A DNA stretch of 64,000 nucleotides. It comes from Escherichia phage vB_EcoM-RPN242. The position numbers were made by a program, and so were the translations under genes. The stretch lies in the sequence record OL656110.1. One strand, given 5' to 3'. The notes below the pieces were generated by a model, which searched no databases, had not been told where the DNA came from, and was given only the letters and a program-made list of their open reading frames with translations. Position 1 is the stretch's first letter; each line of letters begins with the position of its first letter. Below are positions 2,468 through 56,767 of the stretch, in pieces.

Positions 2468-3510
2468 ACTACACCTTCCAGGAACTTAGGATCAACGATC
2501 TTGCGGTCAACCGGAGAATGGGTGAGCGCGGTGTTCAAGCCATGATCCTGAATCAGGTCCAGGTTAATGAGCTTTTCGTTCAGTTTGCAGTGCAGACAGT
2601 ACGCCATCTGTACAATCAGGCCGCGATCCGCATCGTATTCCTTCAGGTGGGCGACCACAGTTTCCCAAGGGCTGCCGATATCACAGTGATGAAGCACGCC
2701 AGTGAACAGATTGCGGATATGGTTCTGGTTGGTCACGTTCTTGAAGTGAATCATGGAGTTGATGAACCCAGCTTCTACTTTGGTGTCCTTCGTGATCTTT
2801 CCCAGCTGCTTCTGGCTGACTTCATTGTTGTAGTAATGAAGATTGTTAGAGAATAGCTTGTACTGACCGACATCAACATCCAGCACCCGAGCAATCACTT
2901 CCTGAAGAATAGAGAACTCAATGAAGTTGATTGAACTCATCCCCCACAGAACATCCTGTGAGCGATTGATGACCGTCAGGTTCAGACGACCTTCAACGAT
3001 GGCGAACAACAGAGCCAGGTTACACACCATGTCCTTAGTCTTCGCTTCGCCGCTCTCGCTGAACTTCGCCAGACCAGCATCCGAATCTAGAGCCGGGTCA
3101 TAGATGGTGAGGTACGCCTGGCGAGTGTTTGGGTTCTTGCGCAGGCGGTTAATAACGCTATCCAGCTGGCCATGGGCGTACAGACGCGGACCATAAGCAG
3201 CTCGCCATGTTACCCCATCATCCGAAAAGTTAGCAGCGCGAGGCAATACGCGTGACAGGAACTTTATGTCGTTGCGGCCTGACAACACCCAGAAGGTCTC
3301 GCCGATGGCAGCGATAGCCGATGAGTTGCGACCTTCAATAGAGAGCCAGCGGTCACGGATGTCGGCGACGGTTATGGTCACGCCATCAAGGAAGCGGGTG
3401 CTATCAGTATTGATTTCAGCATTACCAGGATCAGATTCGATCCCGAATTCACGGATAGCCAAGACAGCCTGCTTCAGCATGTCATTGTTGTTAATTGCTT
3501 TGATTTCCAT
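2464..3510 (-). CDS. thymidylate synthase-fold enzyme (ThyA / pyrimidine hydroxymethylase family) with ~100-aa C-terminal extension
   Basis: 348 aa; collinear with ThyA: AAIGETFWVLSG, NPNTRQAYLTIYDP, catalytic-Cys region DMVCNLALLFAIVEGRLNLTVINRSQDVLWG, then VGQYKLFSNNLHYYN; extra C-terminal domain not found in canonical ThyA. Confidence 0.8.
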   Translation of the reverse strand: MEIKAINNNDMLKQAVLAIREFGIESDPGNAEINTDSTRFLDGVTITVADIRDRWLSIEGRNSSAIAAIGETFWVLSGRNDIKFLSRVLPRAANFSDDGVTWRAAYGPRLYAHGQLDSVINRLRKNPNTRQAYLTIYDPALDSDAGLAKFSESGEAKTKDMVCNLALLFAIVEGRLNLTVINRSQDVLWGMSSINFIEFSILQEVIARVLDVDVGQYKLFSNNLHYYNNEVSQKQLGKITKDTKVEAGFINSMIHFKNVTNQNHIRNLFTGVLHHCDIGSPWETVVAHLKEYDADRGLIVQMAYCLHCKLNEKLINLDLIQDHGLNTALTHSPVDRKIVDPKFLEGVV

Positions 3511-4169
3511 CAGATACTCCCAAAATCACGACAGAGGAATGCCATCACAGCCTGGTCTACTGTTAGGCCGTGAGACTTCATCATACCCGCAGCCACCGTA
3601 GGGAACAAGTCTTTATGTCGTTGACGATGGTCATGAACTCTCTCCCACTTCTCGACCACCAGACTTTCATTGAAGTCCACACCACCGTTACGTGATTTAA
3701 CGCGGGAGATACACGTTTCAAGGGGAGTGTCCATAAAGAGCACAACCAATTCACGTGGTGGGCGTGTCAGGCGGGGGATCCAAGAACTCAATAATGTTGA
3801 TGGAATGATACCTTCGAAAATCACATCATATTTCAAGTATTCTGGTTGGTCAGCAATAGACAACGCGAACAACATCTGCTCAGTGTCCTTCAGGGAATCA
3901 ACCCCCTTGGACTTCGACTTGTCATATTTACCGATACAGACCACGTTGAACGAAGGACAGACAGTCAGCATGACCTTGCCGTTATGGGTCACGACATACG
4001 CCTGAGGATCCCTCTCCGCCAGCTGAGAAGGCACAGTGGATTTACCGCTACCATTGGAGCCTTTGACGTAGTAGATTTGCCCTCGTGCTGGGTAGATCCC
4101 CTTTACGACGGGTGGTTTAAAGAATGTGTGGACGGGGCGCTTCATCAGCCCCTTCAGGGAGTAGGACAT
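3510..4169 (-). CDS. P-loop kinase (nucleotide or DNA-base kinase candidate)
   Basis: Walker A YYVKGSNGSGKST; first ATG at 4169 with GGAG RBS (track start at 4181 is TTG); stop overlaps start of ThyA-fold gene. Confidence 0.7.
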   Translation of the reverse strand: MSYSLKGLMKRPVHTFFKPPVVKGIYPARGQIYYVKGSNGSGKSTVPSQLAERDPQAYVVTHNGKVMLTVCPSFNVVCIGKYDKSKSKGVDSLKDTEQMLFALSIADQPEYLKYDVIFEGIIPSTLLSSWIPRLTRPPRELVVLFMDTPLETCISRVKSRNGGVDFNESLVVEKWERVHDHRQRHKDLFPTVAAGMMKSHGLTVDQAVMAFLCRDFGSI

Positions 4170-4180
4170 AAACTGCTCCA

Positions 4181-4212
4181 ATAAACAAAAGGAGCTGCTA
4201 TTATAGCAGCCC
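4181..4212 (-). terminator. putative rho-independent terminator
   Basis: Hairpin gctgct-attat-agcagc (4194..4210) followed on minus strand by tccttttgtttat. Confidence 0.5.
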
Positions 4213-4244
4213 CTTCATCTATTGAACAGTTTCTGAACTTAAAT

Positions 4245-5081
4245 CTACACAGCTTTCGCTTCAGCCAGAGCCTGTGGAAGCCATTCATTGATCGCCTTAA
4301 CCAGAGACTCAGCATCAGACTCTTTGATCTTCTGACGTTTGGTGAAGGACTTACCGTTCACGTACAGACTGAAGCCCCAGCCACCGGAAACGATAGGCGC
4401 AACGTCGACATACGTATTGGTGCGGGCGTGAAGGTTTTCAGGGTTAGCCAGTTCGGTGACCGGGAACTGGAACCAACGCATGTCTGGGTTCACGTAGCTC
4501 AGGAACACGCCGGGAACAACACCAGCTTCAATCGCCGCCAAGACCGGACCGTGATTAGAAGCGCGAGCCAAGTCAACCATTTCCTCACGTTTGGTGTGAC
4601 GGCGTTTACGCTCTACCAGCGCCGCCTGCGGGGTCAGGGTCTTACCCTTCGATGCTTCTTTCAACATAGAAGACGCCAAGGAACCGATTTTCGCGTCGGA
4701 CGGCTGATTGCCTTCTTCCAGCGCCGCGTTGACTGCATCTTCAACCGCGTCTACCGGGGCGTCGGACACTGGGGCTTCACATGCATCGGCAGAGATCGGT
4801 GCTTCAGCATCAATGGTTTCAGCGACTTTCAGCGATACTTCAGCTTGGGCTTGCTCTTGGGCTTGCGCCAGAGCCTGCTGAGTTTCTTCCTTCTCTTCGG
4901 CGCTCAGACCTTCAATCAGTTCGAAGCCGTTGGCAGCCTGAAGAACACCTTCAACCATACGGCGCAGGGTAACGTTTCCGATGATCAGACCTGCTTCTTT
5001 GATTTCAGCCTGAATAGCAGCAACGTCTTTGCCTTCAATTTCAATTTTGGTTCCAGAATCCACATGAAGAATATATGACAT
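4245..5081 (-). CDS. hypothetical protein with acidic Ala/Glu/Gln-rich low-complexity centre
   Basis: 278 aa complete ORF with ATG start; segment EEKEETQQALAQAQEQAQAEV. Confidence 0.6.
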   Translation of the reverse strand: MSYILHVDSGTKIEIEGKDVAAIQAEIKEAGLIIGNVTLRRMVEGVLQAANGFELIEGLSAEEKEETQQALAQAQEQAQAEVSLKVAETIDAEAPISADACEAPVSDAPVDAVEDAVNAALEEGNQPSDAKIGSLASSMLKEASKGKTLTPQAALVERKRRHTKREEMVDLARASNHGPVLAAIEAGVVPGVFLSYVNPDMRWFQFPVTELANPENLHARTNTYVDVAPIVSGGWGFSLYVNGKSFTKRQKIKESDAESLVKAINEWLPQALAEAKAV

Positions 5082-5151
5082 AATAAAAACCCTTTCGTTA
5101 TTAAGACCGTATCCGCGGCATATTGTTGTTCTGACTGTGTAGTGAGAACAT

Positions 5152-5179
5152 AATATACTGCATTTTCATAGATGTAAAC
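5152..5179 (-). promoter_or_regulatory. sigma70-like (T4 early-type) promoter candidate
   Basis: Minus strand reads GTTTAC - 16 nt - TATATT about 70 nt upstream of the ATG at 5081, inside a 176-bp AT-rich intergenic region. Confidence 0.4.
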
Positions 5180-5257
5180 TACTTTTTATTGAAAAGAAAG
5201 TTAACACCTAAGTGTTATAAGGTGCGCGACCAAGCGGAGCGCGAACTTGCGTGAATA

Positions 5258-5565: not shown

Positions 5566-6315
5566 TTATTTGGACAGATAGAAGTTTGGAACTTCAGGGA
5601 AATGTTCTGGTGGGATATCTACCAGAACATCCTGTTTCACCTTCCCTTCGATATCTTCGCGGATACGACGAATCACTTCTTCCTGTTGTTCTGCTGCCAT
5701 CACTTCTTCCATGGCTGAGTACAAGTTTTCTAGAATGACACCTACGTAGTTGTGGATGGCACGACAGGAGTTCTGATCATACTCCATATCCGGATGAATC
5801 GCCAGGTCGACCTGATCACGCCCTACCAGCAGATGTCCAGAAACCAGATTTATCGGGTATTTGAATACTTCACTAGATTTGACAGCAACTCCGTCGGCTT
5901 GCTTCAGCAGAAATTCGGTTTCAGAGAAGCGTTCAAGCAGTTCTGATGGGAATACCATATCGAGATTCTGACGCTTGCGACCAAAGAAGTATAGACAATG
6001 CGCCAGTTTCAGGCATGCATCGGTGGCCATCTTCATGTGTGCTTTAGCGTGTTCATAACCAGCGATCACATCACGGACATAATCGTACAGGTCGGAATGA
6101 CCAAAACGGATGTCCTCTTCGAAGCGGATTGCTGTTTCACTGTCCGGTTTCACACCCAGAACATCGAAAATATTTTGTTCACGAACGAATCTGCCGTTTC
6201 GATCGAAACCCAGAACACAACCTACTTCGAATCCACTCTTTTCAAAATTTGGGAGTTTCATATCAAGGCGAGCTGGGGTAAACTCTAACCCGAACATACG
6301 ATAAATTTGTGACAT
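5566..6315 (-). CDS. hypothetical protein (249 aa)
   Basis: Complete ORF with ATG start; no recognised motif. Confidence 0.6.
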   Translation of the reverse strand: MSQIYRMFGLEFTPARLDMKLPNFEKSGFEVGCVLGFDRNGRFVREQNIFDVLGVKPDSETAIRFEEDIRFGHSDLYDYVRDVIAGYEHAKAHMKMATDACLKLAHCLYFFGRKRQNLDMVFPSELLERFSETEFLLKQADGVAVKSSEVFKYPINLVSGHLLVGRDQVDLAIHPDMEYDQNSCRAIHNYVGVILENLYSAMEEVMAAEQQEEVIRRIREDIEGKVKQDVLVDIPPEHFPEVPNFYLSK

Positions 6316-6377
6316 GTTATAGCCTCATCATTTAGGATTACCTGTTCACGAATTATCCCTCGGAACGGGTTATAGAA

Positions 6378-7082
6378 CTATTTCTTCTTATGCATACGAC
6401 GTGCATCTTTCCACACAGACATCTGGCTCTGTTTCTGGAAGCGGGCAGTGCGCATGAAGAGAACGATCTCCCAGTACTGTGGCTCAATCTCGTAAAGCTG
6501 TGAACGGAACTGATCGGCGCGGTACAGCTTCACACAGTGATTGTACAGCGGATGGTTGGCGAAGCGCTTCAGGGCTTCCCAGGTGAGCTTCAGACGCGTC
6601 TTTGAGCGGTATGCCCGTTCGTTACGCAACTTGATCAGATCCTCAAACACCAACAGCCTGAGCTTTGGTGGCAGGTAGTGCATGTTGAGTCCCCAGAGGT
6701 ATGTTACACCCTTCTCTCCAAAGGTGATACCATCACCCTTGACAAAGTTGAAGAAGAACACCAGAGGGTACATATCCCAGTAGGGTAGTTCATTCTTCGT
6801 CAGAGCATCATATTTGAAATAGAACATACGCCCGACTATATACCGCACACCTTGTACCGGACGTTTGTGATCAGCAAACGCCTGTTTCATATGGTTGGGA
6901 CTCAGGTTGGCGTCCTTAGACACACGCTCCATGAACCACACATGCGAACGGCGGATGTTACGCTTCGCCTCTGGACCGAAGTGTTGACGGTACTTGCGGA
7001 TGTAACGCTTGACCAGCTCGGGGGCGTCCATCTCGGCCGGAAACAGCAACGGATCTTCTTCGCCAGCTGCATTCTTTGCCAT
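6378..7082 (-). CDS. hypothetical protein (234 aa, basic C-terminus)
   Basis: Complete ORF with ATG start; divergent from the plus-strand late gene at 7136. Confidence 0.6.
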   Translation of the reverse strand: MAKNAAGEEDPLLFPAEMDAPELVKRYIRKYRQHFGPEAKRNIRRSHVWFMERVSKDANLSPNHMKQAFADHKRPVQGVRYIVGRMFYFKYDALTKNELPYWDMYPLVFFFNFVKGDGITFGEKGVTYLWGLNMHYLPPKLRLLVFEDLIKLRNERAYRSKTRLKLTWEALKRFANHPLYNHCVKLYRADQFRSQLYEIEPQYWEIVLFMRTARFQKQSQMSVWKDARRMHKKK

Positions 7083-7093
7083 TTGTCAACTCC

Positions 7094-7101
7094 TATAAAT
7101 A
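7094..7101 (+). promoter_or_regulatory. T4-type late promoter box TATAAATA
   Basis: Exact TATAAATA on plus strand about 35 nt upstream of the 7136 start; a gp55-like late sigma is encoded in the window. Confidence 0.55.
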
Positions 7102-7135
7102 ATAACAGTTATTTTATTTAAGTGGAGTCCTCATC

Positions 7136-8080
7136 GTGGAAGACTATCGCAATTTTATCACACAGATGTTACAGCGGGGCTTGTCGCGCAAGAACCGCTT
7201 CAGAGTGACCATCCCTCTACCACCAGGGATCTTTGACTCCAATGCCACTCTGGCTAATGACGGAAAGGCGTACAGAACCAATTCATCTTTTGGTGACTTG
7301 TTTAAGCAGTCAGCCCGTATTGTAAACGCTTTCTTTGGAGGGACAAACCAGACGTCCCGTTCCCTTCAGATGATGTGTATGGTTGCCTCATTGCCAGGGG
7401 TTGGTATCGACACCACTCCAATGACAAACAACGGTAATCACATCAAGATGCCGAACAACAAGTCCAACGTCGACCTCGACTTGTCATTCTTATTAGCCAA
7501 TGACTATTATGAGAAGTCTGTGATGGACAAGTGGAAGAGTCTGATCTTTGATCCACACACCACCAAAATGGGATATTACGAAGACTTCGTGACTGACATA
7601 TGCATTGAACAGCTTGACACCGAAGATCAAGTGGTCCACCGCGTCTACATCGTCGAGGCTCACCCAATAAATTTCAGTTCTATTGAGCTAGATAAAGGTG
7701 CCACAGACCAGTTCAACCAGTACAACATTTCTTTCTCTTACAACAAAGTGCTTTCGGAGACAGAATATGAAACACGCAGCCTTTCCAGCGATTTTCTTCC
7801 TCTCGGCATTGCTGACGCTCTTACCAGTGGTGACTGGGAAACTGCGGCCTCAAAAGCTGGACAGCTTTATCGCAAGGTGAAAGAAGGGAACTTCACAGGA
7901 GAGGCTCTCCTGGCTTACAAACAGCTTGACCAACTTGTAAACAACCTGGCTGGGATAAGCATACAGGACTTCGAGCGCATCTCGGTAGGTATCTCTCGTG
8001 ACATCATGGGTAACGATAACCTGACGGCGGCGGAGAAGACAAGCCTGTTGGGAATATTGCAAGACGTGATGGGGAAATAA
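7136..8080 (+). CDS. tail-tube-fold structural protein (T4 gp19/gp54 family-like)
   Basis: 314 aa; GTG start at 7136 preceded by GGAG; NRFRVTIPLPPGIF ... MMCMVASLPGVGIDTTP pattern resembles the gp19/gp54 family; late promoter upstream. Confidence 0.5.
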   Translation: MEDYRNFITQMLQRGLSRKNRFRVTIPLPPGIFDSNATLANDGKAYRTNSSFGDLFKQSARIVNAFFGGTNQTSRSLQMMCMVASLPGVGIDTTPMTNNGNHIKMPNNKSNVDLDLSFLLANDYYEKSVMDKWKSLIFDPHTTKMGYYEDFVTDICIEQLDTEDQVVHRVYIVEAHPINFSSIELDKGATDQFNQYNISFSYNKVLSETEYETRSLSSDFLPLGIADALTSGDWETAASKAGQLYRKVKEGNFTGEALLAYKQLDQLVNNLAGISIQDFERISVGISRDIMGNDNLTAAEKTSLLGILQDVMGK

Positions 8081-8105
8081 AAAGCCATCCGAAGATGGCT
8101 TGTTG
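8081..8105. terminator. bidirectional hairpin terminator between convergent genes
   Basis: agccatc-cgaa-gatggct stem-loop (8083..8100) with flanking A/T runs, between the + gene ending 8080 and the - gene ending 8107. Confidence 0.5.
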
Positions 8106-8106
8106 A

Positions 8107-9129
8107 TCAGTTAGACTTGAGATACTGCTCGAATTCGTCAATGGAAGCCGTGTTTCTGGCATTCGGTTGAGACTGAGACTGAGACTGAGCCTGCGACGGC
8201 GCGGCCTGTTGCTGTTTCAGGCTGTCTTGAGCAGTTGGCTGATGTGTAGTCTGGGTGCTAGGAGCATGAGCCATCGTGGCTGCACCACCTTCAACCAGAG
8301 GCTGGTCATCAGGGATTGCCAGAACTTTGCGCAGGCGCTTTTCCAGGGAGTCGTAGTCTTTGAAGTTAGCCGGATTGAAGAATTCAAACAGGCTGTGCTC
8401 GCGAGACCAGACGTCTTCCATATACGCTTCGTCATCACTCAGCGGGGCAGGGTTCTCCCACACCACCTTACTGAAGTTTGCCACCAGACCTTCCCAGTTC
8501 CCAAACTTCTTCTGCTCGCCAAAGAGCTTCAGGTTCAGGTTGGCACCTTCCCACAGATCGAACGGATCGAATTTAGGGTCGGTTGGGAACTTAGGATTCT
8601 GCGCCTGATCCAGGATTTTCTTGATGGCGTTACCAAATTCCAGCAGGAAGACCTTGCCGTTGTTTTCCGGTACGTTGACATCTTTGATCACCAGGATGTT
8701 AGCGTAGTATTTGGTGTCGGGTAGACGTTTCTTCAGGATGTCCTTCAGCTTTTCGTCGTTCGTTTCTTTCTGCTGCGCCCACAGCGGACGGTCATGGTCG
8801 CGCACCGGATCGTCGTTGCCGAACGTCTGAGGTGAGTTCTCAATGTACCAACCACCAGGACCCTGGAACTGATGTTTCATGATCATGGCACAAGGGGTGA
8901 GGATCTGATCTTTATCGATCGTCCCTTCTTCCTGTGCCTTGAGGTCTACCAGCGGGACTGGCAGGAAGCGGATGATGTTCTCTGAGATACCATCTTTGTT
9001 CCAAGTCCATTTCCAGATGCGAGGATCCTTCTGGAAACCGGACTTCTGGCCTTGCTGTGCAAGACGCGCCTGCATAGCTTCAGTTTGCTGGCCACGGGAT
9101 GCTTTCAGACGATCGAATAAATTACCCAT
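8107..9129 (-). CDS. 32: single-stranded DNA-binding protein (T4 gp32-like)
   Basis: 340 aa; IRFLPVP, YYANILVIKDVNVPENNGKVFLLEFG and DLWEGANLNLKL match gp32 core motifs; Q/S-rich acidic C-terminal tail. Confidence 0.85.
   Translation of the reverse strand: MGNLFDRLKASRGQQTEAMQARLAQQGQKSGFQKDPRIWKWTWNKDGISENIIRFLPVPLVDLKAQEEGTIDKDQILTPCAMIMKHQFQGPGGWYIENSPQTFGNDDPVRDHDRPLWAQQKETNDEKLKDILKKRLPDTKYYANILVIKDVNVPENNGKVFLLEFGNAIKKILDQAQNPKFPTDPKFDPFDLWEGANLNLKLFGEQKKFGNWEGLVANFSKVVWENPAPLSDDEAYMEDVWSREHSLFEFFNPANFKDYDSLEKRLRKVLAIPDDQPLVEGGAATMAHAPSTQTTHQPTAQDSLKQQQAAPSQAQSQSQSQPNARNTASIDEFEQYLKSN
8168..8190. repeat. tandem hexanucleotide repeat (tgagac x ~3.8)
   Basis: Encodes the SQSQSQSQ low-complexity stretch in the gp32-like C-terminus. 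Confidence 0.6.
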
Positions 9130-9228
9130 TTCTTAATTTCCTATGTTTCCGCCCCTCAGGGCTATTCTGTTACATGTATTTTCAGTTTGCTACAAAGCGG
9201 GGTAATTATACCCCGATCTTACATTGAA

Positions 9229-9468
9229 TTAACCTTTAAGCACTTGATTTGCTGGGTCAATTTCAATAATGTCGAACACGTCCGAAAACGTCTTCTTGCC
9301 TTCGTCGTGCGTGTGATACTCAACGACGTATGAGCGACCATCAGGGGTAACGTAACGAATACGATCCGTCTGGTCGGCATGCTCGTTCAGGCTACCCACA
9401 CGCCAGCGCATAGAGCCAGGAAGAAACTCGGCAGCTTTCATTGCGCTGTAAATTGATTCTTTGCTCAT
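9229..9468 (-). CDS. hypothetical protein (79 aa)
   Basis: Complete ORF with ATG start. Confidence 0.5.
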   Translation of the reverse strand: MSKESIYSAMKAAEFLPGSMRWRVGSLNEHADQTDRIRYVTPDGRSYVVEYHTHDEGKKTFSDVFDIIEIDPANQVLKG

Positions 9469-9475
9469 AATAGAC

Positions 9476-9721
9476 CTACACTAATTTCTTGGACTTTAGC
9501 GCGTCTTTGATCAGGCGCGCATCGGAGCACTCAGCTGTCAGTCGTGACAACAATGGTGCTGTAATCATCTTTTTGACTTTGGTCTCGTCTATGTCGTTCT
9601 CTTCACAGACAGCTGCCAGAGTCTCAAGGATACTATCCTTGGTTTGGGCGGCGCGTAGTAGGACGATTTCAGAAAATAATTCTGGTGTCATCACAAGCGC
9701 TGGCTGTTTTTCTTCAGACAT
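9476..9721 (-). CDS. hypothetical protein (81 aa)
   Basis: Complete ORF with ATG start; overlaps upstream gene. Confidence 0.5.
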   Translation of the reverse strand: MSEEKQPALVMTPELFSEIVLLRAAQTKDSILETLAAVCEENDIDETKVKKMITAPLLSRLTAECSDARLIKDALKSKKLV

Positions 9722-9959
9722 CGATTGTGTTCCCCTTACCCGAACCCTTCTTTATCGTACGCAAGACGTCCTTGAAGCCATCTGGAGCTGATTGTGGTCC
9801 CTTCACCCCAGAGACAATCTTGGGAGCACCCACGACCATTTTAATCTCCCCTCCGCACTCAGTGCAGGGGTTGGATTCAGGCTCATGGCGATCTGCAATA
9901 GATTTACGCAGTGTCATCGCGTTACCACAGCCCTTGCATTGATAATCATACAGCGGCAT
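9714..9959 (-). CDS. zinc-ribbon protein (FmdB-like CxxC...CxxC)
   Basis: 81 aa; YDYQCKGCGN ... CTECGG. Confidence 0.55.
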   Translation of the reverse strand: MPLYDYQCKGCGNAMTLRKSIADRHEPESNPCTECGGEIKMVVGAPKIVSGVKGPQSAPDGFKDVLRTIKKGSGKGNTIDV

Positions 9960-47669: not shown

Positions 47670-47975
47670 TCACTTAAACGAGTCAACGATGGATGTAAGA
47701 ATTTCGGGGGTGGGTTTGGCGTCTTGTGGTTCACGGAAACCCACCTTTGCGATGCGGCCCAAGACATTGTACACTTCGCGCGGAAGGGTGTCTACGACCG
47801 TGTCCGACATGAACGCCACGTCTTCTTGGATGGCGTTGTATTCGGCCAGTTTAGCCAGTTCTGATTCTACCAGGGACTTCAGCTTTTGCAATGGGTCGTT
47901 GCAATAGTTGAGACGGTTGCAGTTGGTGAGCGCCTGAGTTAGATTCTCAAACGCTTCTTGTATTTCCTTTGACAT
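47670..47975 (-). CDS. hypothetical protein (101 aa)
   Basis: Start at ATG 47975 (MSKEIQEAF...). Confidence 0.45.
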   Translation of the reverse strand: MSKEIQEAFENLTQALTNCNRLNYCNDPLQKLKSLVESELAKLAEYNAIQEDVAFMSDTVVDTLPREVYNVLGRIAKVGFREPQDAKPTPEILTSIVDSFK

Positions 47976-48357
47976 TGATATGTGCCTCGTATTGTTGACA
48001 GACAACAACTACTTTACGGCACATGTCGATATCGAACAAGCCAATATGACACTCACGCTTCTTTATCCCCAGCTTATGCGCCAGCCAACTATAAGCGTCG
48101 CTCCTGCTCCTCTCTCCGCTTTTCCACAATGGGTCAAACGATCTATGGGCTTCCTGCTTAGCAGCACGGAGAGCGGCATTCGCCATCCTTCCCAAAGGTT
48201 GTCTGCCGTCGCCATGGGTATGGCAACCGACACGGGCATCACATGGAGTGCACACCCAGAACTTCAGATTGCGGAGGTCAGGGCGATGAGGGTAGAGAAC
48301 ATCACCACCGACGAATTCGGCTGGGAGGCCGCAGTAATCACAAATGACAGGTTTCAT
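47947..48357 (-). CDS. zinc-ribbon protein (DUF3268-like)
   Basis: Start at ATG 48357 (MKPVICDYCGLPAEFVGG...); second Cys cluster CTPCDARVGCH. Confidence 0.5.
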   Translation of the reverse strand: MKPVICDYCGLPAEFVGGDVLYPHRPDLRNLKFWVCTPCDARVGCHTHGDGRQPLGRMANAALRAAKQEAHRSFDPLWKSGERSRSDAYSWLAHKLGIKKRECHIGLFDIDMCRKVVVVCQQYEAHINVKGNTRSV

Positions 48358-48417
48358 ATTCTTTGTCCAAAAGAAACCCCGCACATGGCGGGGTTGCTCA
48401 GGCTGAGGTCAGACAGA

Positions 48418-48833: not shown

Positions 48834-50852
48834 TTAGAACACAACTTTCACAGTGCGGTTGAACGAACCGCTCACCTTCACGAACACGTGGTTGCGTTGG
48901 GTGGTAGAGAAGCCCAGACCGGACAGCTGCTCAGTGCTTGGCTGTACTTTAATCTTACCACCTAACATTTCAAAAACCTTGCGGTGTTTATCAAGTTCCG
49001 GCTTCAGATATTCGTTATAGAAACCACGGGTGCCGACAGGGTTAGCACAACCTTCCAGGATGAAGAACACGTGCTTGTTGCCAGTCTGCTCGCCGTCCCA
49101 ATGGTTTGGTGAGTTCAGAACCAGCTGTACCTTCTGGAAGACGGAGGTCTTGATGCCCCAGATTTCCTGAGAGCGAGCGTCGTCTTTCAGGGTAGAACTG
49201 ATGTCAACCACCTGACCAGCGCGAACCTGAACCACAACAGCCAACGTGCGATCTTTGTTGCCCAGGCCAGGGTGTGAGAAGCGCTTAGTCTGGCCTTTGT
49301 ATTCAACTTCGATTTCGAAACCAACGTCACAGGTTTCACGCTTGTTGAAGTTGGTGACATAGAACTCATAATTCCCGTCACGCAACTTGCGTTCATCGCT
49401 AAAGAAGATGTTCTCCACCGGACGGCGGTTTGGATCAATGCCGTCCATACCGTTCATGTCGATGTCCAGAGTTGCGCCAGTTGTCGAACGACGGTTGCGA
49501 AAATATACGTGGTTGTGAAGAGGATCGTTCATGCTCAGATCCAGGTCGTCGTTGTTATGCCAAGCCAGTGACACGCGGAGGAAGCTGTCGACATTGCCGC
49601 CTGCGGTCTTCACGCGCTCTTTGATGGAGTCGGCCACTTCGCCATTGTACGACCAGCTGAAGCCGTTGTTCCACTTGAACAGGTTAGGAGCGCCTGCGGT
49701 AGCCGGAGCGATCAGGGACATCAGGTTGCCAATGTGAGAGTTTTCGACCAGCACTTCTAGGGAATGCGCCTTTGGCAACACGTTGGTCAGGAAGTCGTCG
49801 ATCGTGATCTCTTCAACCTTGTCCAGGGACTTTGTCGGAGTCTTCACTTCAGACGCCAGCTGAGCAAACGGGTCCATCTTCTTCTGAGCTGCCAGATCGG
49901 CGAACAGAACGTTGTTGATGGTCAGATCGTCATACACGGCATAACGGCGACCCAGTGAATCAGTCAGACCCAGCGCTTCGACTTCTTTCTGCGCGTTTTC
50001 AATCATCGACTTCGTGACCAGCGCGGTTGGGCGCTTGTAGTTCGTCGGAGCGACTTTGGCTTCAAAGGACTTCACGGCGGTTTCCAGATCCCGGCCTTCA
50101 TTGAGGTCTACCAGCAGAGAGCCAATCACGGTATTACGAATGCCGTGAGGGGTATGACCGTTTGCACGGTAGCCAGTGCGCCAAGCCCACAGAGCGCGTT
50201 TCTCTTCTGCAGTTTGTTCGTACAGGGTCTTGTTCACCACGAACGCCTGCACTGCCGCTTTGTGCTCTTCACCGCGATACAGAGAATTCTGGTCGATCAA
50301 TTCCAGAACGATTTCAGCCGATTCCAGAGACAGTTCACGCAGGCCGCGCTCAAACACTTCAATCGCCTGGCGGATTTCACCCTTCTTAGAAGCGATGGTA
50401 TCTGCCCGCAGAACATAGCTGCTCAGCAGGTCGGTGTGGAAGTGGTTGTAGGTGCGGACAATACCGTCTTTCATTTCGTGATTCGACCCAACACCAACTT
50501 TCTTGGTGTCGTTGAAGTACACGTCGACGATTGCGTGCTGCTTAACATATGCTGACAGCGCCGCAGCGACAACGTCGTATTCGTTACCCAACTGAATGTT
50601 ATCCCAGATAGAGATCACGTTCAGGTCGGAGTCGATGGTGACCACACCGCCGATGTTACGGATGAATTGTTTACAGCAGGTGCAGTCGTGCTCGGTACGC
50701 TCACGATAAAGCGGGTTAGTGCCAGCAGGGAAAGAAGACAGATACAGATCCCACAGAGCATCTTTATCGATGTTGGTCATGAACAGACCAGTTGCTGACA
50801 TGGCCCGCACGTTATTGTTGACAGCTACTGCGAAGGACTTAAAATCTGACAT
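48834..50852 (-). CDS. large hypothetical protein (672 aa) with N-terminal Cys cluster
   Basis: ATG start with AGGAAGATTACATC leader; HDCTCCKQF near N-terminus; no Walker or polymerase motifs recognised. Confidence 0.7.
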   Translation of the reverse strand: MSDFKSFAVAVNNNVRAMSATGLFMTNIDKDALWDLYLSSFPAGTNPLYRERTEHDCTCCKQFIRNIGGVVTIDSDLNVISIWDNIQLGNEYDVVAAALSAYVKQHAIVDVYFNDTKKVGVGSNHEMKDGIVRTYNHFHTDLLSSYVLRADTIASKKGEIRQAIEVFERGLRELSLESAEIVLELIDQNSLYRGEEHKAAVQAFVVNKTLYEQTAEEKRALWAWRTGYRANGHTPHGIRNTVIGSLLVDLNEGRDLETAVKSFEAKVAPTNYKRPTALVTKSMIENAQKEVEALGLTDSLGRRYAVYDDLTINNVLFADLAAQKKMDPFAQLASEVKTPTKSLDKVEEITIDDFLTNVLPKAHSLEVLVENSHIGNLMSLIAPATAGAPNLFKWNNGFSWSYNGEVADSIKERVKTAGGNVDSFLRVSLAWHNNDDLDLSMNDPLHNHVYFRNRRSTTGATLDIDMNGMDGIDPNRRPVENIFFSDERKLRDGNYEFYVTNFNKRETCDVGFEIEVEYKGQTKRFSHPGLGNKDRTLAVVVQVRAGQVVDISSTLKDDARSQEIWGIKTSVFQKVQLVLNSPNHWDGEQTGNKHVFFILEGCANPVGTRGFYNEYLKPELDKHRKVFEMLGGKIKVQPSTEQLSGLGFSTTQRNHVFVKVSGSFNRTVKVVF

Positions 50853-50966: not shown

Positions 50967-51955
50967 TTATTCAGAAGAACCATATCGTTCTGTCCATTTA
51001 GGACATTTCAAAGGTTCCCACCCTCTATTGAAACGTTCGATAATGCTGTTTGTCGCATTAAAAGCCTTCAGGTCTTTTGTTCTGTACACATGCATGAGGG
51101 CTTCCGCTCTTTTCATTGTTTTTATTGCTTCAAGGAATTTATCAGCTTTTGACCAATACGCATCATTGTCGGGGTTCCATTTACCCTTCTCCCAAGGCAT
51201 CTTAGCCAACATGCCTTTCTGAGCGTTTTCTTTCTGTTTGGCGCGTTGCTCTGGTGTGAATGAGTTGGTTAAGTCCTTCCCATAATTGGGATTGAGTTCC
51301 CCAAGTTTAGCTTTACTGGCACGTTCAGAAAATTGTTCTAAATCTATGTTGGCGCGGCGTTTCTCTAAAACCCGCCTTTTATATTCAGGATCAGAAGCCA
51401 TCCTTTCATGGATTTTCATCAATCCTTTGGTAATTTTCTTGACTTGCTCTGGGGTTCTCTTATATCCATATTGGGGATTATTCTTTCCTCTTCTCCCATA
51501 CATTGGGTTGTTTGCCCCGACGCATTTGGAGACACCCTTTGTGAGTTTGGATATTCTTTGTCCAAATTCTTTCCTTAACTTTTCGTAAAGGTGAGAATTA
51601 AATTTTATACCCGTTGGTGTATACCTACCCCCACGGCTCATCAAAAGAACAGCATATACCATATCAGAATTCGGGAAAGCCAAGGCCAAGCATACATGGA
51701 CAAGATAATGTTGTCTGCCTGTTAATCGAACCAAATTTATCTTATCTTTAGAATATTCAGGGAACATGCTCTTGGGAAGGATGTGGTGCAATTCAGTGTA
51801 GTCACCATCAGAATATTTGAAAGATTGAACCATCATCAAATACTTCTTGATGAAATGCGGTTTACCGCCTTTAGAAATCAATAATTCGTAAAACATAACA
51901 GGAACTCCAAATGAAAGTTCCTGTTATAATATACTTTCTTAACTCACAAAGTAAG
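50860..51955 (-). mobile_element. free-standing homing-endonuclease insertion (candidate mobile element)
   Basis: AT-rich island holding only the HNH gene, inserted between two conserved-looking genes and bounded by intergenic AT-rich sequence on both sides. Confidence 0.45.
50967..51896 (-). CDS. HNH homing endonuclease with NUMOD-like repeats
   Basis: 309 aa; HNH core ELHHILPKS ... N ... H; repeated NPMYGRRGKNNPQYG and NPNYGK motifs; ATG start with GGAG RBS. Confidence 0.75.
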   Translation of the reverse strand: MFYELLISKGGKPHFIKKYLMMVQSFKYSDGDYTELHHILPKSMFPEYSKDKINLVRLTGRQHYLVHVCLALAFPNSDMVYAVLLMSRGGRYTPTGIKFNSHLYEKLRKEFGQRISKLTKGVSKCVGANNPMYGRRGKNNPQYGYKRTPEQVKKITKGLMKIHERMASDPEYKRRVLEKRRANIDLEQFSERASKAKLGELNPNYGKDLTNSFTPEQRAKQKENAQKGMLAKMPWEKGKWNPDNDAYWSKADKFLEAIKTMKRAEALMHVYRTKDLKAFNATNSIIERFNRGWEPLKCPKWTERYGSSE

Positions 51956-53149
51956 TTACTTTTTAAATAAATTTAGTAGGTTTTTAGAACCAGATGTCGC
52001 TTTAGGTTGTCCTTCCCCATCGTATCCAACCTTCCCGCGCGGTTTTTTACCTTGCTGTACAGCCTCTACACAACGGGTATATTTCTGAAGTTCACAAAAC
52101 ATATTTTCTCCTGCCATTATATTTAAATGGCGATCCCAAGGCTCTTCCACAGACCAAAATTCTTCCCTGTTATACCCAAGAGGACCATAAACTGCGTCCT
52201 GGTTGTCCCGTAGCCAGAAGATGCATTCTTCGTGGGTCATACCGTCTTTGTTCAGGAACAGCAGATCAATACCTGCGCGACAGCCTGGTCCAGCAACCGT
52301 GAAGTGGTTCTCACTGAAAGGATATTCAGGAATGTAAGTGAAGTCTACCCAGATCTGATAGGCCAGGAATGGACCAAGCCCTTCGATGTCGTCATACATG
52401 CGCTGGTATACTTCCAAAGGAGTACCAAGGCGCAGCAGGTCATGGAAATAATTTGGATACTTGTTGACGAATGCCTTCAGGGAGCGGATGACACGCATTG
52501 GCATGTACGGTTCCCAACCTTCGATGGTGTAGAAGTCCGGCTCTGCTTCGGCTATCGCCTTGGCTTCTTTATAATCCATGTTCTGGGTTGAACCGTCTTT
52601 ACAGATCAGATTCACCATCATCCCACCGAAGCGCTGCTCCTTGTGGTTGACAACCATCTCAGGGAAAGCCAGGCATTGCTTCAGGCCGCCCGTGTTGAAG
52701 GCATTGGTGAATACCTTACCGCCGTCGGCCTCGAACTTCTGAAGTCGTTCGCGGGTTGCATCGAGGTTGATCTCGGCGAATTCTTTGATCGTCATCGCGC
52801 CGCCGATAGCCTGGATTGGATCCCAGAGGTTGAACATGCGGAACATCACGCAGTTGAACATCTTGTCGGCCATACCCAGAGCATCGTTGTTGACAATGTT
52901 GTTGATCAGGTTGAGAGACTGCCTGTCGTGCTCTCTCCGGACATTACAGAACTTGACCTGCCGTAGTATGGGATTATCAGTCCAAGGAGCAGGAAGGCGC
53001 TGGACGTCCTTCTTGACGTGGATCTGATAACGATCGCGCATCCATTCGTAAGACAGGCGGGTATGGGTCGGACTGAGAACCGGTTTGGCCGACTTTATCT
53101 TTTCTTCACGGACACCGCAGTACGGGACGTCTAGGGCTTTATCTTTCAT
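51956..53149 (-). CDS. hypothetical enzyme-sized protein (397 aa)
   Basis: ATG start with AAGAGGATACC leader; no motif recognised. Confidence 0.65.
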   Translation of the reverse strand: MKDKALDVPYCGVREEKIKSAKPVLSPTHTRLSYEWMRDRYQIHVKKDVQRLPAPWTDNPILRQVKFCNVRREHDRQSLNLINNIVNNDALGMADKMFNCVMFRMFNLWDPIQAIGGAMTIKEFAEINLDATRERLQKFEADGGKVFTNAFNTGGLKQCLAFPEMVVNHKEQRFGGMMVNLICKDGSTQNMDYKEAKAIAEAEPDFYTIEGWEPYMPMRVIRSLKAFVNKYPNYFHDLLRLGTPLEVYQRMYDDIEGLGPFLAYQIWVDFTYIPEYPFSENHFTVAGPGCRAGIDLLFLNKDGMTHEECIFWLRDNQDAVYGPLGYNREEFWSVEEPWDRHLNIMAGENMFCELQKYTRCVEAVQQGKKPRGKVGYDGEGQPKATSGSKNLLNLFKK

Positions 53150-53217
53150 GGTATCCTCTTAGAATACGAAAACAGAGGCCATTATAGCCTCTGTTGTTTA
53201 GTGAATAACTGTATATC

Positions 53218-54090
53218 TTAATCGATACGGGTCAGTTGGGTGATAGATGATTGCACTGGGCTGGCCACATAGATACGGACGTTGGCTTTCCATTCACCCC
53301 AGATCAACGGCAGAGTTGGGAAGTTGTCTTCATTGAAAACAAACACGGGAATGTAGCTCTCGACTGTTTCGCCAGAGAACGCCTGAAAGCCCATCTTGGT
53401 GTATCCCATGATCTCGTCAATAAAATCGAACGGAGCGAAGGCAACACCAGCGTGTTCGTTAGAACCGAGCTGGCCTGGAATGGCCGTGCCCGTCAGAATG
53501 ATTTCGGTGATCTGGCGCTTAGGCTCGGTGGTCAACATATCAGAGAAGTCAGGCTCTTTGAAGGTTGCCATGTTCTTCAGGAACTTGCCAGCCGGGTACT
53601 CTTTGCCGTCGACAGTGATGGTGTCCACCACTTTGATGCACGCCTGAGGGAATTCCCCTTCGATGCGCAGACTTTCGCGTGGGAAGCCTTTGTTGTAGTA
53701 GTAATCCAGTGCAGGCACAACTTCACCTTCATTACGGATGAACTTGCTCATGTTAGAGGCATACACGCGCTGTAGGCATTCGTCACCGTCGAAACCAGCA
53801 ATATGAGCCACACCGTCGTTGACTGTTGTGATGTCGCCCTGGGCGTCCATGATCTGGCGCATGATGTCTTTGATGTCGACAACAACGGGTTCTTTCAGGA
53901 CTCGCGGAGATGCAGTGAACTCAATTTTCACCTCGTGGTCGAAATACGCCGCTTCCAGCAGTTCACGGGTTTCTTCCAGCACCAGTTTCGCCTGATTGCG
54001 GATCTTACCAAAGTCGGGCGATGTGACGTCGCCCTTTGCATTACCGAAAGCCAGATTCAGATTCACGTTCTTGGAAAATGTAGTTGTCAT
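53218..54090 (-). CDS. hypothetical protein (290 aa) immediately downstream of regA
   Basis: Complete ORF with ATG start; occupies the position where T4 carries gene 43. Confidence 0.65.
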   Translation of the reverse strand: MTTTFSKNVNLNLAFGNAKGDVTSPDFGKIRNQAKLVLEETRELLEAAYFDHEVKIEFTASPRVLKEPVVVDIKDIMRQIMDAQGDITTVNDGVAHIAGFDGDECLQRVYASNMSKFIRNEGEVVPALDYYYNKGFPRESLRIEGEFPQACIKVVDTITVDGKEYPAGKFLKNMATFKEPDFSDMLTTEPKRQITEIILTGTAIPGQLGSNEHAGVAFAPFDFIDEIMGYTKMGFQAFSGETVESYIPVFVFNEDNFPTLPLIWGEWKANVRIYVASPVQSSITQLTRID

Positions 54091-54106: not shown

Positions 54107-54571
54107 TTATTCGCTTTTTGCCTTTGTAGGCCGGATGATGTATTTTGGAACCAGCTTCCATTCAGGAACCTGATCGTGTTTAACCACTTTAATGCGAGAC
54201 ATATCGGCTGCTTCGGTGACCTGCTCAGGATGAATGACCTTCACCATGTTCCACTGCTCCAGCAGCTTGATGATTCGGTTCATCCTCAGGACATCTTCGC
54301 GGTTAAATCCGTTGTAATGCCCGTCCAGCATAAATAGATGCTTAAAGTGGACGATATAATACTTACCACACTTATGAAGAATATGGCAAGTCTGATACAG
54401 AGTATTCGGCTCTTGGCGCGTGTTTACCCCAATTCGACTCAGTGTTTCCTTGATCCCCAGAAATATACCTGGCCGATCTTGGTTCAATTGAACTTCAACC
54501 ATACAATCAACGATGCTGGCCTCATCGTTGACTGCTGAAATATTCAATATGTCTAGCGTATTACGCGCCAT
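54107..54571 (-). CDS. regA: translational repressor RegA
   Basis: 154 aa; LYQTCHILHKCGKYYIVHFKHLFMLDG and PEWKLVPKY match T4 RegA. Confidence 0.8.
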   Translation of the reverse strand: MARNTLDILNISAVNDEASIVDCMVEVQLNQDRPGIFLGIKETLSRIGVNTRQEPNTLYQTCHILHKCGKYYIVHFKHLFMLDGHYNGFNREDVLRMNRIIKLLEQWNMVKVIHPEQVTEAADMSRIKVVKHDQVPEWKLVPKYIIRPTKAKSE

Positions 54572-54600
54572 GACTCATTCCCCTTTTACAATAGTTTGAA

Positions 54601-55056
54601 CTATTTAGCCTTGCGCGGTTTCGCTTTGGCGTTCAGCTCAGTGCGTCTCATCTTCTCGCGTATCTCGGCCAGGACTTCCTTCGGCAAGAAACGGACGTAC
54701 TCCGATGCCTTCTCCATGCTGATGTAGAAGTACTCTGAGAGTAACTTCACGTCAGGATCAATCGGACCTTTCTTAGACCATTTATCGTAGCGTTTCCGAG
54801 CCGGAATGGTGTAAAAGGCATATGACCATTGCATCCATGGAGTGATAGCATGTAGCTTATTCATCTGTTGCGCAGCCACTAGAGTGTCTTTGCTCTGAGC
54901 TAAACCACGCCGCGTCATAAACGGGTCGAATCCTTTCAACACTTCTGGGTCATCAGACCGCAAAAGGTTTTCTTTGCTGCTGTTCAGAGCAGCCAGGTAA
55001 TCGAACAATCCAAGGGCGGCCATAATATCACTTCCACTTGATGTTGAGCATGACAT
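54601..55056 (-). CDS. clamp-loader small subunit (T4 gp62-like), start uncertain
   Basis: Assigned by synteny between gp44 and regA; first start codon overlaps gp44 by 29 nt, alternative ATG at 55023. Confidence 0.5.
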   Translation of the reverse strand: MSCSTSSGSDIMAALGLFDYLAALNSSKENLLRSDDPEVLKGFDPFMTRRGLAQSKDTLVAAQQMNKLHAITPWMQWSYAFYTIPARKRYDKWSKKGPIDPDVKLLSEYFYISMEKASEYVRFLPKEVLAEIREKMRRTELNAKAKPRKAK

Positions 55057-56017
55057 TGGTCAGGAAAAACACGGCATGCAGCCAGACATCGCCGACTTGA
55101 CGGTGTTCAATCTGAGACTGACCACATACGCATACCAGATCAGGGATAGACTCATTCTGAACCAACATTTGCTTCTCTTTATCCTGTGGTACACAGAACT
55201 GGAAGAAGCGGGAATAGAAGTCTTCAGTGATATAGTTCTGGTTGTCGGTCACCCACTGCTTCATCCCAGCCCAGTCATTATCCTTCAACATATCCACCAA
55301 CATGCCCATATCGGCCGATTTTAACACAGCCAGTGCACGTTCGTCAATCTTGCCGTAAGTGGTGACGTTATCCTGTAGAACACCCATGATGCGGCGGTTA
55401 TCAGGGAAATGGCGCTTGACAATAGCAGCCAACACAGGAGGGTCATACTCAACACCTTCGCAGCGAAGGATTTCAGCACAGCGGCGCATGAACTGAAGTT
55501 TGACCTCATCAGCCTCGGTCTCATTCCAGATAAAGTCGATTTCACGGCAACGAGAGCGCAGAGGTTCGTTCACACGTTGCTTGGCGTTGGTGGTCAGGAT
55601 GAATGAACAGTTCTTGGAGACCTTCTCCACAATACCCTTCAGCGACTCCTGTGCCGCCATAGACAGACGCTCTACTTCGTCGAGGATAACGACTTTGCGA
55701 CCACCGAATACGCTCACACCAGTAGAGTACTGAATCACGCGGTCACGGATAACGTCGATGCTGTTGTCCAGGGATGCGTTGATCATCAGTGGTTGCTTAC
55801 AACCGATTTCATTACACACGGCCAGGGCGGAGGTAGTCTTGCCAGTACCAGGCTGAGGGGAGTAGAACAGCATAGACGGGATGTTGCCGTTGCCGCTGGT
55901 GATGTAGCCATGGATTTTAGCGCGGACGTCTTGAGGGATGATAATCTCGTCCAGGTTGTCAGGGCGGAAGCGGTTTTCCCATGCATACTGGTCTTTTACA
56001 ATTGTGATATTAGACAT
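55028..56017 (-). CDS. 44: clamp-loader ATPase (T4 gp44-like, RFC family AAA+)
   Basis: 329 aa; collinear with T4 gp44: NRFRPDNLDEII, Walker A SPQPGTGKTT, VVILDEVE, SRCREI. Confidence 0.9.
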   Translation of the reverse strand: MSNITIVKDQYAWENRFRPDNLDEIIIPQDVRAKIHGYITSGNGNIPSMLFYSPQPGTGKTTSALAVCNEIGCKQPLMINASLDNSIDVIRDRVIQYSTGVSVFGGRKVVILDEVERLSMAAQESLKGIVEKVSKNCSFILTTNAKQRVNEPLRSRCREIDFIWNETEADEVKLQFMRRCAEILRCEGVEYDPPVLAAIVKRHFPDNRRIMGVLQDNVTTYGKIDERALAVLKSADMGMLVDMLKDNDWAGMKQWVTDNQNYITEDFYSRFFQFCVPQDKEKQMLVQNESIPDLVCVCGQSQIEHRQVGDVWLHAVFFLTNVMLNIKWK

Positions 56018-56098
56018 TTTCAGCCTCGTGTAGAAGAATCATTTCAAATAGGCGGGGAACGCCCCGCCCACACATTATAGCATCAGGCTGGAGATTGA

Positions 56099-56767
56099 TT
56101 ACTCAATCTGTGCGCCGACGAAGTAATTGATCGTCGCGTCGGATGATTGGAAGTTCACCATCTGTAGATCAGCACAGGCACGCAGAGTGTAGTTGCCTTC
56201 GATCATTTTCAGGTTGGCAACATCCAGCGGCATTACGAAGTCCGGCAGCGCGGTTTCGCCCAGCTCAACAGTGTAGTTGTTGGAGTTGTCCAAGGTAGTG
56301 GTGGTTGCAACCAGGCGAGTTTTGCCACCCTGAGCAACCAGGCGCACAGTCTTGTGTCCGAGGGTAGAGCAGGCGCGGGTCAGTTCTTTCATCTTCTCTG
56401 GAGTGATGATCGCTTCAAAGTCAACAGACGGCAGTTCAATGGTGTCAGCCGGGACAACCGTGAGTTCTTTAGCAGAACGCCAGAATTGCAGCTGAGAGCT
56501 TTCGCCTTTCAACAGGATGTAGTCCTGATGGAATTCGGCTTTGGCACCTTTGAAGGAAGGTAGGCGCTGGATGGCCAGAAGTTTGGTCAGGTCCAGAATC
56601 GGGAACTCAAACGGGAAGTCTTCTTCGATCTGCGCCACGGCGATCACAGTAGAAGAATCATTAATACTGCGCAGCATCTTACCCGGTGTCAGAACGATAG
56701 ATGGGTTGATGGTCTCAAAGTTGGCCAGCAACTGAAGTGTACGTTCGGAGAGAGTGATCTCTTGCAT
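56099..56767 (-). CDS. 45: sliding clamp (T4 gp45-like)
   Basis: 222 aa; N-terminal TLQLLANFETINPSIVL parallels T4 gp45 TALLKNFATINSGIML; position upstream of gp44/gp62/regA as in T4. Confidence 0.75.
   Translation of the reverse strand: MQEITLSERTLQLLANFETINPSIVLTPGKMLRSINDSSTVIAVAQIEEDFPFEFPILDLTKLLAIQRLPSFKGAKAEFHQDYILLKGESSQLQFWRSAKELTVVPADTIELPSVDFEAIITPEKMKELTRACSTLGHKTVRLVAQGGKTRLVATTTTLDNSNNYTVELGETALPDFVMPLDVANLKMIEGNYTLRACADLQMVNFQSSDATINYFVGAQIE

Follow-up and report, generated by a model that had tools for sequence, protein, structure and literature searches.

A predicted MazG-like pyrophosphohydrolase, a putative base-processing enzyme and a candidate homing endonuclease cassette in the Ackermannviridae gene order downstream of regA

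In a 64,000-nt stretch of Escherichia phage vB_EcoM-RPN242 (OL656110.1; hereafter the window), regA is followed by genes for a protein of 290 amino acids (aa), a protein of 397 aa and an HNH endonuclease, at the position where phage T4 carries its DNA polymerase. Our best explanation, held at a probability of about 0.6, is that the genes stand in the usual layout of the Ackermannviridae, that the 290-aa protein is a MazG-like nucleoside triphosphate (NTP) pyrophosphohydrolase, that the 397-aa protein is an enzyme acting on modified bases in DNA, and that the HNH gene arrived as a homing endonuclease cassette. A sequence-only reading of the window had taken the two proteins as uncharacterised occupants of the polymerase position and as possible missing transferases of a DNA-modification pathway.

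Gene order downstream of regA

The 290-aa open reading frame (ORF; 53218..54090), the 397-aa ORF (51956..53149) and the 309-aa ORF of the HNH endonuclease (50967..51896) lie on the minus strand, next to a T4-type clamp and clamp-loader module with its translational repressor, RegA (54107..56767, minus strand). The ORF list, Pfam and PHROGs bore out these positions and the order 45-44-62-regA. Salmonella phage ViI (NC_015296) is annotated in the same order: orf00165 (gp45), 164, 163, 162 (regA), 161 (MazG-like) and 160 (gp160). We fetched 68 viral loci encoding relatives of the 397-aa protein, of which 23 came from enterobacterial Ackermannviridae (IMG/VR), and all 23 showed regA followed by a MazG-like gene and a gp160-like gene. 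At the DNA level, the region shared 94.6% identity with Escherichia phage AV101 and 98% with phages PC3 and PH4. It matched 282 phage records, whose hosts by name are nearly all Enterobacterales, and the records inspected were Ackermannviridae. The order regA, MazG-like gene, gp160-like gene is the standard Ackermannviridae (ViI-like) layout, and the longer order from gene 45 to the gp160-like gene would be ancestral and fixed in this family. Both proteins were 100% identical to vB_EcoM-RPN242 database entries, and proteins and layout alike are already known from public databases. The word uncharacterised therefore fits them only in part: neither has a demonstrated activity, but both belong to described families and have identical database entries.

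No DNA_pol_B domain was found by Pfam in the 290-aa or the 397-aa protein, and the ViI family-B polymerase used as a tblastn query had no match in the whole window (E<=1e-3). The earlier statements that no family-B polymerase follows regA and that neither protein carries polymerase motifs were thus upheld. The polymerase was located in relatives, as the sequence-only reading had advised, and synteny was compared across the family. In ViI it is encoded at 145128..148124 (Pfam DNA_pol_B_exo1 and DNA_pol_B) and in AV101 at 6092..9091; in both phages, it is followed by a second kinase gene for 5-hydroxymethyl-deoxyuridine (5-hmdU) DNA and then by a clade-2 transferase (serine:DNA transferase), and this locus is roughly 45–55 kb from regA. 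A review describes the genome organisation of Ackermannviridae as 'more scattered' than that of Tevenviruses (PMC11721090). Given the family-wide order and the separate polymerase locus, the 'missing polymerase' is ordinary family synteny, and the claim that the two proteins stand in place of the polymerase had to be given up. The polymerase locus in ViI and AV101 and the lack of polymerase domains also ruled out that the two genes took the place of a lost or split polymerase. The sequence-only reading had itself allowed for a polymerase just outside the window in an otherwise standard arrangement; the arrangement is standard and the polymerase lies outside, but tens of kilobases beyond rather than just past the edge.

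The gp160-like protein and its possible reaction

The 397-aa protein matched Pfam PF18723 (HMUDK_hel, formerly aGPT-Pplase clade 1) at 1.8e-78, with 264 bits against a curated cut-off of 25 and over profile positions 4–280 of 281. It was 75.6% identical over its full length to ViI gp160, which is listed as 'aG/PT-PPlase1' by Lee et al. 2018 (PMC5889632). Some GenBank records name its homologue 'alpha-glutamyl/putrescinyl thymine pyrophosphorylase clade 1', and Pfam now calls clade 2 'ADDT' (PF18724) and clade 1 '5-hmdU DNA kinase, helical domain', after a fusion in phage SP10. The proposed comparison with the alpha-glutamyl/putrescinyl-thymine pyrophosphorylase families was therefore fruitful, and the PF18723 match places the protein in that superfamily, with a predicted helix-hairpin-helix (HhH) fold like that of DNA glycosylases. 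On sequence grounds, we assign the 397-aa protein as a clade-1 paralogue of the amino-acid:DNA transferases and the orthologue of ViI gp160.

The conserved motifs of the protein are FCNVRREHD (67–75), GPF (259–261) and E348-N-M-F-C352-E-L-Q-K-Y. Residues E348, C352, E353 and K356 were invariant among clade-1 homologues down to 19% identity. The pattern ExxxCExxK[YF] occurred in 62 of the 65 full-length clade-1 homologues from the 68 loci, and a Glu/Cys motif of the ExxxCE type was also found in PaMx11 gp50 and 15599 gp16. A broad clade-1 alignment, compared profile to profile with one of 28 clade-2 members, gave an E value of 3.5e-4 over 151 columns, and the comparison placed G259-P-F261 on G144-P-W146 and E348/N349/C352 on E243/T244/C247 of PUGT, the clade-2 enzyme PaMx11 gp46. 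PUGT clamps the flipped base between W146 and C247, binds its metal through E243 and T244, and uses C247 as the nucleophile (PMC11472151). The 397-aa protein thus keeps counterparts of the PUGT aromatic clamp residue (F261), metal-binding Glu (E348) and nucleophilic Cys (C352), with the Glu four residues upstream of the Cys as in PF18724.

The two clades are nevertheless distant. The 397-aa protein had no PF18724 match even at E<=10, whereas ViI gp247 and PaMx11 gp46 did match, and it showed no BLAST similarity to ViI gp247. A direct sequence search of the 290-aa and 397-aa proteins against PDB chains returned nothing, the clade-1 profile gave only chance matches to PDB chains, and hhalign of this profile with ViI gp247 alone or with a three-sequence clade-2 alignment was not significant. 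The N-terminal half of clade 1 could not be aligned to clade 2; it carries the clade-1-specific invariant motif F-[CT]-N-[VI]-x-R-E-x-D and the invariant charged residues R40, R72, E73, D75 and R104. The donor-pocket residues of clade 2 lie in the region where the clades do not align. Clade 1 is very probably an enzyme with the same first half-reaction as clade 2, to judge from the shared motif, and because its N-terminal half is not alignable, its second substrate should differ.

A clade-1 gene was present in every thymidine-hypermodifying phage examined, namely ViI, PaMx11 (gp50) and Acinetobacter phage SH-Ab 15599 (gp16), and PMC5889632 (Table 3) lists it for M6, phiW-14 and SP10 as well, in SP10 as a fusion with the kinase (gp186). 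The PaMx11 gene directly follows the kinase gene and overlaps it. In 15599 (locus L009), gp16 at 8961..9926 (E 1.9e-15) adjoins the dUMP hydroxymethylase gene; it had been unreported, and the pathway of the 2026 paper does not include it. In 15599, also a member of the Ackermannviridae, the gene directly after regA encodes a clade-2 diamine:DNA transferase (3922..5251). Vibrio-type relatives (L037–L040) have the compact order kinase, clade 2, clade 1, in contrast to the dispersed genes of enterobacterial Ackermannviridae; in L038–L040, clade 1 is followed by a second kinase gene and a hydroxymethylase gene like that of thymidylate synthase (TS), and a dUTPase_2 gene was detected in L039 and L040. 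In HTVC023P-type pelagiphages, clade 1 is paired with a thymidylate-synthase homologue, and no clade-2 partner is described (PMC9599517). The clade-1 genes of the IMG/VR contigs L041–L081, mostly 40–60 kb long, were 31–41% identical. In L049 (10001..11059) and L063, the clade-1 gene adjoins a dCMP deaminase gene, and a D5-like primase, an HD protein and PolA are encoded downstream in L049.

The window itself holds the matching pathway genes, all on the minus strand and 48 kb from the 397-aa gene. They encode a dimeric-type dUTPase (1350..1901; Pfam dUTPase_2), a thymidylate-synthase-like dUMP hydroxymethylase (2494..3510; Thymidylat_synt) and a 5-hmdU DNA kinase (3513..4169; HMUDK_HMUD1, PF18748, 3.6e-109), the last two also detected by tblastn with ViI proteins. 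The 397-aa gene, the dUMP hydroxymethylase gene and the 5-hmdU DNA kinase gene thus occur in the same genome. ViI-like phages replicate with 5-hmdU, which is then converted within DNA to 5-(2-aminoethoxy)methyl-deoxyuridine (5-NeOmdU) or to thymidine. Five ViI proteins including gp160, supplied as mixed lysates, rebuilt 5-NeOmdU from 5-hmdU DNA (PMC5889632). According to Lee et al. 2021 (PMC8989533), a kinase (gp67 or gp243), gp247 as serine:DNA transferase and the pyridoxal-phosphate-dependent decarboxylase gp226 account for the 5-NeOmdU pathway; for ViI, the text shows gp247 to be necessary, and in the lysate reconstitution of the M6 pathway the group was still added when the clade-1 protein, gp55, was left out. 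The role of missing transferase is therefore unsupported for the 397-aa protein, as it belongs to clade-2 gp247 (PF18724, ADDT), encoded beside the polymerase and outside the window. The broader suggestion that both proteins are DNA-modification enzymes suits the 397-aa protein, by its PF18723 match and 76% identity to gp160, but not the 290-aa protein, which looks like an enzyme of nucleotide metabolism tied to the pathway by position.

The best inference from these data is that clade 1 processes 5-hmdU-derived bases in DNA, possibly making thymine. More tentatively, it may turn 5-hmdU or its phosphate ester back into thymidine within DNA, using a reductant instead of an amino-acid donor. In such a reaction, the 397-aa protein would flip a 5-hmdU-derived base out of duplex DNA, and Cys352 would attack C6, as thymidylate synthase does, to form an exocyclic 5-methylene intermediate. 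This intermediate would be resolved by an acceptor other than an amino acid, most likely hydride, which would leave thymidine at the non-hypermodified sites. ViI-type virion DNA is described as free of 5-hmdU, with thymidine at these sites (PMC5889632 and PMC8989533). The latter source also states that the M6 clade-2 enzyme with borohydride gives thymidine from 5-phosphomethyl-deoxyuridine (5-PmdU), so thymine-forming chemistry is feasible. Thymidine formation would explain why clade 1 accompanies a dUMP hydroxymethylase in every thymidine-hypermodifying phage examined, why it is paired with a thymidylate-synthase homologue and no described clade-2 partner in the pelagiphages, and why a clade-2 gene is missing within 10 kb of the clade-1 gene in many other viral contigs.

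Several points weigh against this proposal. No clade-1 activity is reported in PMC5889632, PMC13458397 or PMC8989533, our analysis identified no hydride donor or cofactor site for clade 1, and the current Pfam name, 'helical domain' of the kinase, implies an accessory role. In 36 of the 41 non-Ackermannviridae contigs, no clade-2 gene was encoded within 10 kb of the clade-1 gene, and a P-loop kinase gene on the same strand was often lacking within 4 kb, so the base acted on may not be phosphorylated. The kinase and TS models, built from 3–4 sequences, were insensitive, and a lack of kinase or TS matches around clade 1 in metagenomic contigs carries little weight.

The accessory role implied by the Pfam name would make the 397-aa protein a non-catalytic partner of the 5-hmdU DNA kinase: it would bind DNA or present the base, aid the kinase in finding or flipping 5-hmdU, and perhaps set the sequence context of modification. 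The fusion in SP10 gp186, the overlap with the kinase gene in PaMx11, the contiguity with kinase and clade 2 in Vibrio-type relatives and the HhH DNA-binding fold all favour such a partner. We nevertheless consider it doubtful, because kinases alone, and the SP10 kinase domain without the helical part, phosphorylate 5-hmdU DNA (PMC8989533), and because almost all clade-1 proteins have the Glu/Cys motif that serves catalysis in clade 2, which is unexpected for a passive partner. The ViI-like gene is also about 48 kb from one kinase gene and tens of kilobases from the other, and many contigs have no kinase gene near clade 1. The same Cys/Glu motif and fold, shared with amino-acid:DNA and diamine:DNA transferases, could instead point to a second group transferase that places another small molecule on 5-PmdU to give a minor or transient hypermodified base, with R40, R72, E73, D75 and R104 forming a different donor pocket. 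This is unlikely: the protein is not a PF18724 member, the donor-binding residues of clade 2 fall in the non-aligning region, and gp247, a kinase and gp226 cover the whole 5-NeOmdU pathway. In addition, 5-NeOmdU and thymidine are what PMC5889632 and PMC8989533 describe in ViI virion DNA, and neither mentions a second modified base. The fold also raises the idea of a true HhH DNA glycosylase that excises unprocessed 5-hmU or uracil or attacks host DNA. We regard this as very improbable, as the conserved Cys/Glu motif is typical of C6-attack chemistry and not of glycosylases, and base excision would be self-destructive on DNA in which hmdU fully replaces T.

We therefore keep base processing, possibly to thymine, as the preferred role of the 397-aa protein. 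Clade 1 is a widely conserved pathway partner that retains the catalytic Cys/Glu of characterised transferases, and its reaction bears on a route of which it was written that 'How 5-hmdU is converted to thymidine ... is still unknown' (PMC5889632). If thymidine formation proved true, an enzyme able to turn a base into thymine within duplex DNA would also attract interest as a tool. As a genome feature, the locus has little weight, being the normal Ackermannviridae layout.

The MazG-like protein and the homing endonuclease cassette

PHROG 2144, 'MazG-like pyrophosphatase', matched the 290-aa protein over its full length at 4e-132. Residues 1–190 (53521..54090, minus strand) form the predicted MazG-like domain with the all-alpha NTP pyrophosphohydrolase fold, and a beta-rich C-terminal domain of about 100 residues is encoded, with the stop codon, at 53218..53520 (minus strand). 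Among 40 family sequences down to 22% identity, E40, E43, D82 and D86 were invariant, in agreement with the paired acidic metal-binding motif of such enzymes. Among solved proteins, the closest in sequence is DR2231, a dUTP-specific enzyme that was deposited as a MazG-like NTP pyrophosphohydrolase. An exhaustive search of 1.8 billion representative proteins returned 236 relatives, nearly all covering residues 1–190 only. The C-terminal part of about 100 residues was covered in just 3 of the 236, and this beta domain was found only in the closest relatives. From these profile matches, we assign the 290-aa protein to the MazG-like all-alpha NTP pyrophosphohydrolases, extended here by a C-terminal beta domain; it would be metal-dependent and trim the deoxynucleoside triphosphate pool.

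Some results count against this assignment or against a part for the protein in DNA modification. No Pfam or NCBIfam model (MazG, PRA-PH) matched the 290-aa protein itself, although 8 of 40 remote relatives matched a PRA-PH or MazG-like model. The N-terminal domain has homologues in N4-like phages infecting Pectobacterium and Klebsiella and in Pseudomonas phages of the Pakpunavirus type. In N4-like phiA41, the one locus inspected, the homologue lies among structural genes with no hmdU-pathway gene nearby. Because such homologues occur outside an hmdU context, the link of the 290-aa protein to the modification pathway is only positional.

A more specific role would be that of the phage dTTPase, which removes dTTP so that 5-hmdUTP enters DNA. 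The MazG-like fold with its full set of acidic ligands and the deposited function of DR2231 are consistent with this role, and hmU phages need a dTTPase, as stated in the introduction of PMC8989533. However, gp18 of 15599, experimentally shown to be a dTTPase/dUTPase, is homologous to the dUTPase_2 protein of the window (E 1e-8) and not to the 290-aa protein, of which 15599 has a separate homologue. Since gp18 matches dUTPase_2, and since N-domain homologues occur in N4-like and Pakpunavirus-type phages, with the one inspected locus free of hmdU-pathway genes, we downgraded this role to a doubtful one. The 290-aa protein is probably not the main dTTPase/dUTPase, and the dUTPase_2 gene at 1350..1901 fits better.

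The third gene was confirmed as that of an HNH endonuclease, as the sequence-only reading had named it. The 309-aa protein carries an HNH motif (ELHHILPK...N...H) and a NUMOD3 module, and matched the homing-endonuclease families PHROG 655 and 12434 (3.8e-61); its homologue in Dickeya phages is annotated 'homing endonuclease F-LimVI'. From blastn breakpoints and comparison of C-terminal tails, we delimited a cassette of 1,042 bp (50975..52016, minus strand) that replaces 80 bp of PC3. It contains the HNH gene with the hairpin that precedes it, and it substitutes the final ~20 codons of the 397-aa gene, such that the gp160-like protein ends in ...GGGEYKKRCDEVVLKRGSVNLLDRLKKPE in PC3 and ViI but in ...EGQPKATSGSKNLLNLFKK here. 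The G+C content falls to 36–42% across it. The cassette is present in AV101, SJ3 and Dickeya phages and absent from PC3, PH4 and A221, in which the flanking sequence is 98% identical. With an HNH motif, a DNA-binding module and this presence/absence polymorphism, the 309-aa protein has the marks of a homing endonuclease, and we assign its gene, by sequence comparison, as a free-standing homing endonuclease cassette inserted where the gp160-like gene has its 3' end. In the structural model of the 397-aa protein, residues 380–397 are disordered (predicted local distance difference test <50), which suggests that replacement of the tail was tolerated.

For the HNH gene, the GGAG ribosome-binding site and the AUG are paired in a hairpin with a 15-bp stem (51894..51928, minus strand; RNA fold -20.4 kcal/mol, z -5.0), and directly upstream of this hairpin stands TATATTATAA, which resembles a T4 late promoter. 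By analogy, this arrangement resembles the way in which T4 controls translation of its homing endonuclease genes. The MazG-like and gp160-like genes are 68 bp apart, and this gap holds a terminator-like hairpin with an 11-bp stem and a T-rich tail (53171..53195, minus strand; z -4.4). The hairpin is followed by a second small hairpin over the ribosome-binding site of the next gene.

Neighbouring genes and comparison with known systems

The clamp module consists, on the minus strand, of regA (54107..54571; PF01818, 2e-34), gp62 (54601..55056; PF16790), gp44 (55028..56017; AAA and Gp44_lid) and gp45 (56099..56767), the last assigned from a weak gp45-slide_C match and synteny with annotated relatives. 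Upstream of the module, Pfam and PHROGs identified a UvsW helicase gene. In PC3, an extra 226-aa ORF lies between gp44 and gp45 (L007, 7156..7836), with none in the window, and it is probably a second mobile insertion in the clamp module. On the other side of the HNH gene is a 672-aa ORF (48834..50852, minus strand) that is found family-wide and matches PHROG 1735 with a score of 1018 and no Pfam or NCBIfam model; its ViI counterpart is annotated as two ORFs, both labelled orf00158. A DUF3268 zinc-finger protein of 145 aa (PF11672, 2.7e-37) is encoded at 47947..48384 (minus strand).

Compared with the T4 order 45-44-62-regA-43, the window keeps 45-44-62-regA in the same order on one strand, whereas gene 43, which adjoins regA in T4, is about 50 kb off in Ackermannviridae. 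The closest counterpart of the 397-aa protein, ViI gp160 ('aG/PT-PPlase1', Vi01_130c, orf00160), belongs to the same Pfam family and has the same position after regA and the MazG-like gene; it differs in the C-terminal ~20 residues, because the HNH cassette replaced them in the window. PUGT (PaMx11 gp46, PDB 8Z2M/8Z2N) and the other clade-2 transferases (PF18724) share the Glu/Cys active-site motif with the 397-aa protein, but the invariant F-[CT]-N-[VI]-x-R-E-x-D motif is clade 1's own, and their donor pocket is not alignable with clade 1. The MazG-like NTP pyrophosphohydrolases PDB 3nl9 (a putative one) and Deinococcus DR2231 are without the beta-rich C-terminal domain of about 100 residues seen in the 290-aa protein. 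Finally, the HNH gene resembles the free-standing HNH/NUMOD3 homing endonuclease genes of T4-like phages in its HNH and NUMOD3 modules, patchy presence and low G+C, and there, as here, adjacent coding sequence is replaced along with the insertion.

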